A DNA stretch of 64,000 nucleotides from NCBI RefSeq assembly GCF_054482525.1, contig NZ_CM137006.1; one strand, written 5' to 3'. Positions 7,176-27,439 of this stretch are shown piece by piece (the stretch's first letter is position 1; each line of letters begins with the position of its first letter). The notes under the pieces are model-generated. The model searched no databases. It worked only from the letters and a program-made list of their open reading frames with translations, and was not told where the DNA came from. Made by a program: the position numbers and the translations under genes.

Positions 7176-7248
7176 GTGCAAAGGAAAACGTTTCCGCTTA
7201 TCCTTTGTGTCCGGCAAAAACATCCCTTCAGCCGGAGCATAGAGATTA

Positions 7249-11958: not shown

Positions 11959-11999
11959 GCGTGAAATGTTGCCGGATGGCACGCATCCGGCAATGATAT

Positions 12000-14197: not shown

Positions 14198-14368
14198 ATC
14201 TCCCAAGCCGGATGCTTGAGAATGGCATCCGGCATTCCCACAGCAAATCCCCCTGATTTAGCGATAAAAGCTCTCTGGATTGCGCCCCCTGGAAGTCGGG
14301 CGCATAATTAGTGTGCTTATCTTTTCTTCTTATGTTCACCGCGCCTGGCGCACCAACAGCGGATTGCT

Positions 14369-15677: not shown

Positions 15678-16052
15678 ATGACCATGTACGCAACGCTTGA
15701 AGAAGCCATTGACGCTGCACGCGAAGAATTTCTTGCAGACAACCCCGGCATCGACGCCGAAGACGCGAATGTGCAACAGTTCAATGCCCAAAAATACGTT
15801 TTGCAGGACGGCGACATCATGTGGCAAGTTGAGTTTTTTGCCGACGAAGGGGAAGAAGGTGAATGTTTACCTATGCTTAGCGGTGAAGCCGCGCAAAGTG
15901 TCTTTGACGGCGACTATGATGAGATAGAGATCCGCCAGGAGTGGCAAGAAGAGAATACATTACATGAATGGGACGAGGGGGAATTTCAGCTTGAGCCACC
16001 GCTGGATACCGAGGAAGGACGCGCAGCAGCTGATGAGTGGGATGAACGTTAA
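15678..16052 (+). CDS. msyB: acidic protein MsyB
   Basis: 124-aa highly acidic product MTMYATLEEAIDAAREEF... Confidence 0.85.
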   Translation: MTMYATLEEAIDAAREEFLADNPGIDAEDANVQQFNAQKYVLQDGDIMWQVEFFADEGEEGECLPMLSGEAAQSVFDGDYDEIEIRQEWQEENTLHEWDEGEFQLEPPLDTEEGRAAADEWDER

Positions 16053-16280
16053 TCACTCATACGGGCCATGATGAATGTCGATCGGCAGCAGTAAAGTATC
16101 AAAAACCAGGGAGAATGGCAGATCAAGGATCGTGACATAACGCCAGGCGGAGTCACGCACATCCCATTGCACACCGGGATAATATTGGTTGCCATGCCCC
16201 TGCCCCGGTATAGTGCGACTAATAATGCTGCCACAGCCACTCAGCAAGGTCACCATGATGCTCACCACAATTAAACGCAT
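16053..16280 (-). CDS. yceK: lipoprotein YceK
   Basis: 75-aa ORF with lipobox (LLSGC); convergent with msyB, stops abut. Confidence 0.8.
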   Translation of the reverse strand: MRLIVVSIMVTLLSGCGSIISRTIPGQGHGNQYYPGVQWDVRDSAWRYVTILDLPFSLVFDTLLLPIDIHHGPYE

Positions 16281-16344
16281 TTGATACCTCTTCCGTAAAA
16301 AAATACCGGCATAACGCCGGTATTTTTATTGGCTCGTTGTTTTT

Positions 16345-16445
16345 GCCAGATGTGGCGTGAACGCCTTATCCGACCTACAAAATCTTGCAAAATCAACACA
16401 TTGCAGGAGCGATGTAGGCCTGATAAGCGTAGCGCATCAGGCAAC
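16345..16445. repeat. pair of REP elements in inverted orientation (BIME-like)
   Basis: gccagatgtggcgtgaacgccttatccgacctac ... gtaggcctgataagcgtagcgcatcaggc, typical REP palindromic units. Confidence 0.7.
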
Positions 16446-16452
16446 TACGTTT

Positions 16453-20635
<4,183 letters not shown>

Positions 20636-24514: not shown

Positions 24515-24786
<272 letters not shown>

Positions 24787-24841
24787 GGTGATGCTGCCAA
24801 CTTACTGATTTAGTGTATGATGGTGTTTTTGAGGTGCTCCA

Positions 24842-25117
24842 GTGGCTTCTGTTTCTATCAGCTGTCCCTCCTGTTCAGCTACTGACGGAGTGGTGCGTAA
24901 CGGCAAAAGCACCGCCGGACATCAGCGCTATCTCTGCTCTCACTGCCGTAAAACATGGCAACTGCAGTTCACTTACACCGCTTCTCAACCCGGTACGCAC
25001 CAGAAAATCATTGATATGGCCATGAATGGCGTTGGATGCCGGGCAACCGCCCGCATTATGGGCGTTGGCCTCAACACGATTTTACGTCACTTAAAAAACT
25101 CAGGCCGCAGTCGGTAA
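24842..25117 (+). CDS. insA: IS1 protein InsA
   Basis: 91-aa product [30 protein letters not shown]... recognised as InsA. Confidence 0.95.
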
Positions 25118-25539
25118 CCTCGCGCATACAGCCGGGCAGTGACGTCATCGTCTGCGCGGAAATGGACGAACAGTGGGGATACGTCGGGGCTAAATCGCGC
25201 CAGCGCTGGCTGTTTTACGCGTATGACAGGCTCCGGAAGACGGTTGTTGCGCACGTATTCGGTGAACGCACTATGGCGACGCTGGGGCGTCTTATGAGCC
25301 TGCTGTCACCCTTTGACGTGGTGATATGGATGACGGATGGCTGGCCGCTGTATGAATCCCGCCTGAAGGGAAAGCTGCACGTAATCAGCAAGCGATATAC
25401 GCAGCGAATTGAGCGGCATAACCTGAATCTGAGGCAGCACCTGGCACGGCTGGGACGGAAGTCGCTGTCGTTTTCAAAATCGGTGGAGCTGCATGACAAA
25501 GTCATCGGGCATTATCTGAACATAAAACACTATCAATAA
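25036..25539 (+). CDS. insB: IS1 transposase InsB reading frame (expressed as an InsAB' fusion by -1 frameshift)
   Basis: 167-aa ORF overlapping the insA 3' end; recognised as InsB. Confidence 0.9.
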
Positions 25540-25554
25540 GTTGGAGTCATTACC

Positions 25555-25563
25555 CTCTGCATA
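25555..25563. repeat. 9-bp target-site duplication (ctctgcata), right copy
   Basis: identical to 24778..24786. Confidence 0.85.
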
Positions 25564-26685: not shown

Positions 26686-27439
26686 GTTGTCACCCTGGAC
26701 CTGGTCGTACATTTAAGAAATTAAATCATTTCAACTTGGTTGTTAACGCAACCTGTATTTTGTTAACGCTGCGTTACGATGGAAAGTATGTCTGCGGAAA
26801 TATTTTTAATAACTCACCCGCGCGTTGTATTTTTCTTTTTTTGTTCATACCAAAGTATTAAAACCCACGTAAATACGCTGTTATCTACGCAAAAAAATAT
26901 TTTGTTTTCTTTTAAATCTCCATTTTCCGCAATCAAAAATCACCAGACAGCCATTCTTCTTGCCCGTCGCTGATTGCTGCGATATGTCTTGCGCACAAGC
27001 CGTGACAAACCTCGTCTTTTTGCAGTAAAAAATTGTCCACGGAGGTGTGAAGAAAAAACAACAACGTTTTACATGACGAAAGGACTACACCGAAATATTT
27101 TTTATATGCATTATTAGTAAGTTAGCACCATTTGTATGATTTTTTAAAATTGTGCAATAAAAACCAAATGTACAACTTTTCTATCATTTCTAAACTTAAT
27201 AAAACCTTAAGATTAACATTTTAATATAACGAGTTACATTTAGTTACATGTTTAACACTTGATTTAAGATTTGTAATGGCTAGATTGAAATCAGATGTAA
27301 TCCATTAGTTTTATATTTTACCCATTTAGGGCTGATTTATTACTACACACAGCAGTGCAACATCTGTCAGTACTTCTGGTGCTTCTATTTTAGAGGCAGC
27401 TGTCAGGTGTGCGATCAATAAAAAAAGCGGGGTTTCATC
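26686..27439. promoter_or_regulatory. csgBA / csgDEFG divergent intergenic control region
   Basis: 754-bp AT-rich ORF-free region between divergent csgB and csgD; known to hold the curli promoters and several regulator sites; individual sites not mapped here. Confidence 0.6.

Follow-up and report, generated by a model that had tools for sequence, protein, structure and literature searches.

Members of the REP/BIME repeat family at three intergenic sites of an Escherichia coli chromosome segment: a BIME-1, a single y REP and a BIME-2 remnant

The literature on REP and BIME elements goes back some 40 years. REPs of the E. coli y, z1 and z2 types are imperfect palindromes of 30-40 nt. The BIME-1 type is made up of a z1 and a y REP, occurs as a single copy, and carries a long conserved L linker in which an IHF site is often present (PMC3333891). 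In the BIME-2 type, y and z2 REPs alternate in tandem with short linkers and in variable copy number (PMC3333891), and gyrase cleavage takes place mainly at the y REPs (PMC6379681). Spread and rearrangement of REPs proceed through a REP-associated tyrosine transposase (PMC3333891), and IS1397 has been shown experimentally to insert into REPs in a loop-specific manner (PMC1525189). REPs that lie within 15 nt of a stop codon cause ribosome stalling, according to the work of Liang et al. 2015 as cited in PMC12306157. Two RNAs described from Shigella are also of importance for comparison: ES036, which is CssrF, an RNA of ~290 nt between dacB and yhbZ that was observed by northern blot in Shigella flexneri, and naRNA4 (CssrE), a REP-derived RNA described from yggN/yggL (PMC3071730).

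The DNA analyzed here (the window, 64 kb in full) is a segment of the E. coli chromosome that is collinear with strain 19KM1776 (NZ_CP151009.1) at 99.99% identity. The sole interruption in the alignment is one 768-bp insertion, an IS1; the IS1 in csgC is the only IS in the window and is unrelated to the REPs. The orientation is opposite to that of the K-12 map, with flgN, murJ, pyrC, yceK-opgH, csg, phoH-efeB, putA, rut and cbpAM-torD. A first-pass annotation had placed REP-type palindromes at three intergenic sites, and both the gene contexts and, to within 1-3 nt, the three coordinate ranges that it gave are correct. Site 1 lies between yceK (16053-16280, minus strand) and opgH (annotated as mdoH; 16453-18996, minus strand), site 2 between phoH and efeB, which are both on the minus strand, and site 3 between the convergent genes cbpM (plus strand) and torD (minus strand). 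REP elements were said to cluster at the three sites. They do exist, but the word is a loose one for separate loci that are 19 and 24 kb apart.

Profile HMMs for y and z1 REPs were built from 65 copies of other genomes and a z2 profile was built from the arrays in other strains; nhmmer was run with the three profiles on the complete 64 kb of the window, all filters being switched off. This gave four strong full-length REP matches, all of them at sites 1-3: the y REP (16344-16378, plus strand, E 9e-11) and z1 REP (16414-16443, minus strand, E 4e-12) of site 1, the y REP of site 2 (35696-35730, plus strand, E 3e-12) and the z2 REP of site 3 (59911-59947, plus strand, E 7e-14). REP-type palindromes are thus present at all three sites, with profile E values of 1e-10 to 1e-14 and, for site 1, an alignment in register with 68 copies. 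The runner-up in the whole window is a degenerate z-like palindrome at 35762-35786 with an E value of 0.005. No further full-length REP was found in the 64-kb window, where the remaining nhmmer matches have E >0.001. Since there are only four strong matches and all lie at sites 1-3, the list of the earlier reader comprises every REP in the window.

The four REPs match the family profiles end to end, including the loops, the asymmetric internal mismatch and the CTAC tail. At the foot of the stem the conserved tetranucleotide GTAG/CTAC reads CTAC in the two y REPs and GTAG in the z1 REP. The y REPs of sites 1 and 2 are 92% identical over 38 nt. The elements fold as the expected hairpins, with energies of -13 to -21 kcal/mol and z scores of -3.2 to -6.4 against shuffles. 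All REPs are extragenic, in spacers between annotated genes, and no T-run was found directly 3' of any of them, which sets the REPs apart from intrinsic terminators as these are defined. The architecture fits the published BIME-1 and BIME-2 types (PMC3333891), and the palindromes are, as had been stated, an ordinary enterobacterial feature. The three sites hold textbook REP/BIME repeats; because they are genuine copies of such long-known repeats, the original observation is correct but ordinary.

Several other searches were carried out. A fixed-spacing IUPAC REP pattern gave no matches in the window because loop lengths vary among REP types, and half-site fuzzy scans, in which the 5' arm alone gave many chance matches in genes, were dropped and replaced by the profile HMMs. 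Tandem repeats were not detected in the window. REP features were sought at all three spacers in the K-12 record NC_000913.3, which lists only CDSs there. With respect to covariation, the REP stems of 66 unique copies are nearly invariant and the linker pairs are fixed by the search pattern, and the counts are uninformative on structure. The substitutions in both y REPs of the window give G-U wobbles on the mRNA-sense (minus) strand and mismatches on the plus strand. This strand bias was set aside as an anecdote, as both one-sided kinds of substitution are about equally frequent across the family.

By its layout site 1 (16344-16443) is a complete BIME-1 (RIP/RIB), in which a y REP, a 35-nt L linker and an inverted z1 REP follow each other. 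The earlier description of an inverted pair holds for the y and z1 REPs, which are indeed inverted, but it is incomplete for a y-L-z1 BIME-1 with a conserved linker. The y REP (TGCCAGATGTGGCGTGAACGCCTTATCCGACCTAC) agrees with the consensus at 32 of 35 positions and forms a hairpin of -15 kcal/mol (z -3.7), the stem of which is weakened on the plus strand by the three departures. At 27 of its 35 positions the linker (16379-16413) has the consensus base of the family, the consensus being that of 65 other unique copies. The z1 REP (TGCCTGATGCGCTACGCTTATCAGGCCTAC on the minus strand) is a 30/30 consensus match with a hairpin of -13.2 kcal/mol (z -4.1). The CTAC of the y REP and the GTAG of the z1 REP both point toward the linker. 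The copy as a whole is 89% identical to the BIME-1 family consensus, compared to 86-98% for the other members. Site 1 shares with BIME-1 the inverse y and z1 REPs, the long conserved L linker with an IHF core consensus, the single copy, the extragenic location and, judged by position, the 3' end of a transcription unit. There is no structural difference; the only deviations are the three y-REP substitutions and ATCAA in the IHF core, where most family members have TTCAA.

The relation of site 1 to a family was examined with a pattern that comprised only the linker core and GTAGG (21 specified bases) and left out the y REP. The scan covered one genome per species for 100,044 species, that is both strands of 298 Gb, for which about 0.14 chance matches were estimated. 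It gave 68 matches in 56 stretches, which are in register with site 1 over 100 nt, and a y REP is present at equal distance in all 68. In this set of one genome per species the matches are confined to Escherichia and Pseudocitrobacter, those in Escherichia being from E. albertii, E. whittamii, two assemblies named E. coli, sp. E1V33 and sp. MOD1-EC7003. Two copies, one from E. whittamii and one from Escherichia sp. E1V33, are orthologous to site 1, with msyB, yceK, the spacer and opgH aligned at 90% identity. All other copies align solely to 16332-16459 of the window, and this defines the edges of the repeat. With a 28-mer word requirement, a 472-nt query around site 1 found 117,063 places in 5,425 E. 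coli genomes (median, 17 per genome), which identifies site 1 as a member of a dispersed repeat family. About 5,389 of 5,426 E. coli genomes covered at least 80% of this query, at 96-100% identity. In the sampled genomes the length of the spacer is constant (471-472) except for one IS200C insertion. Site 1 is single-copy and nearly fixed in E. coli.

The linker contains a small palindrome, TGCAA..TTGCA, and at 16391-16403 the sequence AATCAACACATTG, which fits the IHF core consensus WATCAANNNNTTR. In the whole window the IHF core pattern occurs six times against 3.0 expected, i.e. there is no enrichment, so that the case for IHF rests on the place of the match within the conserved linker. From this position the site-1 linker is a predicted IHF site. 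The first-pass annotation had overlooked this IHF-type linker.

The near fixation of site 1 in E. coli and its orthologous presence in two other Escherichia species could also be explained if the element were kept mainly for its action as DNA, for example as an insulator or a domain boundary, bent by IHF, that separates opgGH from yceK, with any effects on RNA being incidental. The z1 REP and the linker core are invariant between K-12 and the window, in agreement with such a role. However, seven of the eight differences between K-12 and the window in the site-1 spacer are located in the y REP and linker, including variable positions of the IHF core, and this looks like relaxed constraint. Retention may also reflect the absence of a deletion mechanism for a single-copy BIME-1. 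We regard conservation mainly as a DNA element as unlikely, and we prefer to view site 1 as a regular BIME-1 for which the published functions of the family, on RNA as well as on DNA, are proposed.

A different reading of the linker is suggested by Rfam. The ES036 model (RF02751) matches 16379-16421 on the plus strand with 45.7 bits, above its gathering score of 37.6, and a northern blot has revealed the RNA, CssrF, in Shigella flexneri (PMC3071730). The linker could in that case be a copy of a small-RNA gene, ES036/CssrF, with the REPs as mere flanks. The described RNA of ~290 nt, however, comes from a different locus, between dacB and yhbZ, and no promoter-like site was found in 16000-16700. 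The plus strand at site 1 is, furthermore, antisense to both opgH and yceK. Of 14 unrelated paralogous BIME-1 loci that were scanned, 13 have a linker matched by the 43-nt ES036 model, and a single tandem array gave five matches. Since paralogous linkers are matched generally, the model reports the repeat and not a gene at yceK-opgH. A small-RNA gene at this position is therefore very improbable, and the ES036 match is best treated as a signal of the BIME-1 repeat family. The naRNA4 (CssrE) model remained below threshold at site 1 (34.7 vs 59.5 bits).

The position of site 1 in the transcript follows from the order of elements along the minus strand. After the opgH stop codon (16453-16455) there are 9 nt and then the z1 hairpin, succeeded by the linker, the y hairpin, a separate hairpin with seven U residues, and the ribosome binding site region and start (16280) of yceK. 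This order would place the BIME-1 inside the 3' UTR of opgGH, upstream of a probable intrinsic terminator. The separate hairpin (16297-16329, minus strand), with a stem TACCGGC/GCCGGTA and a loop of 5 nt, is not a REP and lies between the BIME-1 and the yceK start. It is flanked by an A-run and, at its opposite end, by a T-run, and it reads as a terminator both ways. Folding of the opgH 3' region at minimum energy gives it 12 pairs, and the 173-nt opgH 3' stretch folds into the hairpins listed above with -61.3 kcal/mol (z -5.1). A terminator consensus scan did not include 16297-16329 in its minus-strand list, probably because the scan takes the longest stem, T-run included, and the fold was relied on instead. 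From its hairpin and U-tract we suggest that 16297-16329 is probably an intrinsic terminator.

At site 2, where efeUOB ends and the promoter region of phoH follows, the window has a single y-type REP (35696-35730, plus strand; -17.6 kcal/mol), to which the y REPs from five other strains could be aligned. It is found 68 nt 3' of the efeB stop codon (35799-35801) and ~50 nt upstream of CTGTCATCACTCTGTCAT (35626-35643, minus strand), a Pho-box-like sequence of phoH. The range reported for this site includes the y REP but not a second, degenerate palindrome at 35760-35787, which reads ATGCCCGATGCGCAGGTTTATCGGGCAT on the minus strand and is the runner-up of the profile search (z1 profile, E 0.005, 13 bits; hairpin -14.5 kcal/mol, z -3.2). 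This palindrome is z-REP-like with a compensated C-G pair, lacks the CTAC tail and a T-run, and stands where K-12 has an inverted z2 REP. A terminator function was considered for 35760-35787 and rejected in view of the missing T-run, the absence of any terminator-like site from the scan of the site-2 spacer, and the weak match to the z1 profile.

The site-2 allele of the window is rare. An identity of at least 99% was found in 3 of 5,423 matching records, PCN033 being among these. In K-12 and four other strains the y REP of site 2 is joined through a 16-nt linker to an inverted z2 REP, and a degenerate REP is present as the third. Divergence from K-12 is limited to 35669-35835, where identity is 51-58%, and the flanks are 96-100% identical. 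Strains of the B2 group, such as Nissle 1917, match the window only as far as 35730, which is the last base of the y REP. The end of this match at the REP places the REP at a recombination or replacement boundary.

Site 3 carries two hairpins. The first, TGCCGGATGTGATGACGCATCCGGCA at 59873-59898, is perfect (-19 kcal/mol, z -5.4), begins 8 nt past the cbpM stop codon (59862-59864), and matches the REP profiles at positions 1-11 only, on both strands. The second is the z2-type REP TGCCTGATGCGACGCTAAACGCGTCTTATCAGGCCAAC (59911-59948, plus strand; -21.3 kcal/mol, z -6.4), which ends 8 nt from the torD stop codon (59957-59959, minus strand). Its tail (59945-59948) is CAAC, with one mismatch to CTAC; other strains have CTAC or CCAC. 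The earlier claim of REP elements at this site is correct for this one intact REP, but the other hairpin is only a deletion-fusion remnant. The window lacks 59 bp that in K-12 stand between GACGCATC, a part of the first REP, and the GCCGCATC with which the inverted y REP ends. Read against K-12, the hairpin at 59873-59898 is the 5' arm of one REP fused by a 59-bp deletion to the 3' end of the neighboring inverted y REP. The terminator scan gave no terminator-like site in the cbpM-torD spacer.

In other strains z2 and inverted y REPs alternate in the cbpM-torD spacer with a period of 101 bp, and the number of REPs is 7 in KKo009, 5 in AZ 189 and 3 in K-12. The z2 REP of the window is homologous to the last z2 of these arrays. 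From the 5,420 matching records 40 were sampled at even intervals. The matched span at site 3 was 451 bp in 14, 510 bp in 16, 512 bp in 2, 613 bp in 3 and 714 bp in 4, and one record was partial. The window has the shortest form. On comparison with these arrays, site 3 is an eroded remnant of a BIME-2 array with one intact z2 REP.

As compared to BIME-2, both of these window loci are reduced. The cbpM-torD spacer with 3, 5 or 7 REPs in other strains, and the y and inverted z2 REPs at efeB-phoH in K-12 and four other strains, are BIME-2 by definition. In the window site 3 has one z2 and no intact y REP, and site 2 has one y and no z2 REP; the y REPs preferred by gyrase are missing from site 3. 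The window therefore holds BIME-2 remnants and not BIME-2. The earlier reader did not notice that other strains have larger BIMEs at sites 2 and 3, of which the window retains reduced forms. The comparison of REP copy number between strains that had been proposed together with the annotation gave variation at sites 2 and 3 and a single copy at site 1. Being length-polymorphic, sites 2 and 3 are usable as strain markers; site 1 is fixed.

The account that we favor, which assigns the elements at all three sites to the REP (palindromic unit) family of E. coli and proposes for them the published functions of that family, is very probably correct. By analogy, the G+C-rich hairpins would be transcribed as the tail of the upstream mRNA, where they could block 3'-to-5' exonucleases and thereby set and stabilize the 3' end of the mRNA. 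The statement that the REPs mark transcript ends is consistent with their positions, after opgH and efeB and 8 nt from the stop codons of cbpM and torD. The hairpins following opgH, cbpM and torD are less than 15 nt from the stop codons, and because of this distance they may stall terminating ribosomes and lower translation. At 8-9 nt they resemble the described stop-proximal stabilizing or stalling REPs in position only, and site 2 differs from these in being 68 nt from the efeB stop codon. On DNA the L linker of the BIME-1 would serve as an IHF site, and y REPs in BIME-2 arrays would be gyrase sites. Changes in copy number and spread could occur via recombination between REPs and via the REP-associated tyrosine transposase, and the REP loops would be specific targets of IS1397.

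One could go further and consider the stop-proximal hairpins of opgH, cbpM and torD as dampers of translation and mRNA decay whose strength depends on the strain, with the REP copy number at cbpM-torD as a heritable tuning knob. The hairpin next to cbpM indeed differs by allele, being the deletion-fusion in the window, a degenerate y-like REP in K-12 and a z2 REP in the 5- and 7-REP arrays. The torD gene faces a z2 REP in every allele compared, and the alleles differ in their y-REP gyrase targets. If true, the knob would act mainly on expression of CbpA/CbpM and possibly of TorCAD. We consider this extension doubtful.

Two further palindromes with REP-like arms are present in the window. The first, TGCCGGATG-GCACG-CATCCGGCA at 11970-11992, lies between the convergent genes yceI and trhO and matches profile positions 1-11 only; it is akin in sequence to the outer REP stem, yet it is not a full REP. 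It is single-copy and of fixed length across about 5,421 genomes. The second, GCCGGATGC-TTGAGAATG-GCATCCGGC at 14207-14233 between lpxL and mdtG, was not a full REP in the profile scan either and is likewise single-copy and of fixed length across about 5,420 genomes. Such unique, fixed hairpins, single-copy in the genome, and the location of all palindromes at gene 3' ends, raise the question whether the palindromes of sites 1-3 could be locus-specific terminators or stabilizer hairpins that resemble REPs by chance or convergence. This is extremely unlikely. The four elements fit the family profiles over their full length, with loops, internal mismatch and CTAC tail, and none is followed by a T-run. 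The site-1 query matches at a median of 17 places per genome, and copy number at sites 2 and 3 shifts by whole-REP units. Full-length paralogues elsewhere in the same genome already refute a locus-specific origin of the four REPs.

In view of the above, the value of the analysis is chiefly one of annotation, with a BIME-1 at yceK-opgH, a single y REP at efeB-phoH and a BIME-2 remnant at cbpM-torD. The refinements are the assignment of site 1 to BIME-1, the recognition that its Rfam match is repeat-derived, and the finding that sites 2 and 3 are reduced here. The comparison also shows, in clear natural cases, how a short deletion between two REP halves erodes a REP and how IS1397 inserts into REP loops.

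The proposal that such sites can be hotspots for IS insertion or rearrangement is borne out by individual cases. The window itself carries no IS at any of its three REP sites and no tnpA-REP gene, and thus differs in both respects from the IS1397 and REP-associated tyrosine transposase systems. In strain Nord122 an IS200C is inserted at site 1, between the positions corresponding to 16331 and 16332 of the window, just past the terminator hairpin; the y REP is 12 nt away. Copy-number change is seen at sites 2 and 3. At site 3 of strain 536 the last z2 REP is split in its loop by an IS1397, and in strain N3 an IS1397 with a short target duplication is found in the hairpin loop at the position of 14207-14233. 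Both the z2 loop of strain 536 and the REP-arm loop of strain N3 fit the published target preference of IS1397.

In the yceK-opgH spacer of E. coli Nord122 (locus L005), an IS200C copy is found at the position equivalent to 16331/16332 of the window, immediately past the terminator hairpin at 16297-16329, with the y REP of the BIME-1 beginning 12 nt further on. In two other strains, insertion sequences are found at the counterparts of two hairpins of the window that are formed by the outer REP arm (GCCGGATG...CATCCGGC) and have no REP core. One lies between yceI and trhO (11970-11992) and is adjoined by an IS3-family element in strain CUPF12; the other lies between lpxL and mdtG (14207-14233), and its loop is occupied by IS1397 in strain N3. 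Each of these hairpins is single-copy and of constant length across about 5,420 genomes.

The window itself carries an IS1 that disrupts csgC (24787-25554), is 768 bp long, has canonical ends and contains the InsA and InsB reading frames. Its 9-bp target site, CTCTGCATA, is duplicated (24778-24786 and 25555-25563), and strain 19KM1776, which is otherwise identical, does not have this insertion. The right end of this IS1 contains one of the window's matches to the IHF consensus (25531-25543).

In Escherichia sp. MOD1-EC7003, BIME-1-type units composed of a y REP, the L linker and a z1 REP occur in tandem arrays (L070, 1-941; L066, 13901-14685; also the loci L065 and L071), whereas BIME-1 of K-12 is described as single-copy. 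The repeats comprise 8.2 copies of 115 bp and 4.8 copies of 162 bp, and both arrays are truncated by contig ends. When 100,044 species representatives were scanned for the exact L-linker pattern, every match came from an Escherichia species or from Pseudocitrobacter (loci L016-L071), and none from Salmonella, Citrobacter or Klebsiella; because the pattern was exact, these counts are lower bounds and the absences are soft.

The REP in the efeB-phoH spacer lies in a divergent patch of about 165 bp (35669-35835) that comprises the REP region and the final codons of efeB. Its identity to K-12 is 51-58%, with 96-100% in the flanks. Just three of 5,423 records reach 99% identity to this allele. The y REP at 35696-35730 shares the variant CCGACCTAC with the window's other y REP, at 16344-16378. 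In both, the substitutions give mismatches on the plus strand but G-U wobbles in the minus-strand hairpin, which has the mRNA sense. Since family-wide counts revealed no general strand bias of such substitutions, this pattern in the two y REPs is probably due to chance.

Gene content around this spacer also differs from K-12. There, pgaD adjoins phoH (K-12 locus L074); its place in the window, at about 33160-35200, is taken by a DUF2726 gene and a tRNA-Ser, and the window gene list contains no pga genes ahead of ghrA. As a result, the distance between phoH and opgH is about 9 kb shorter than in K-12. Additional DNA, which includes a gene for a 447-aa hypothetical protein, separates efeU from putP (about 39100-41770). 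The gene list of K-12 lacks it and has putP directly beside efeU; the K-12 alignment ends at 39264.

Three further Rfam matches scored above threshold, all on the plus strand. Ysr251 reached 192.8 bits at 34418-34611, where it runs antisense to the 3' portion of phoH; ES056 (27293-27384) extends across the boundary between csgD and csgE; and the third match is the PyrC leader (7199-7248).
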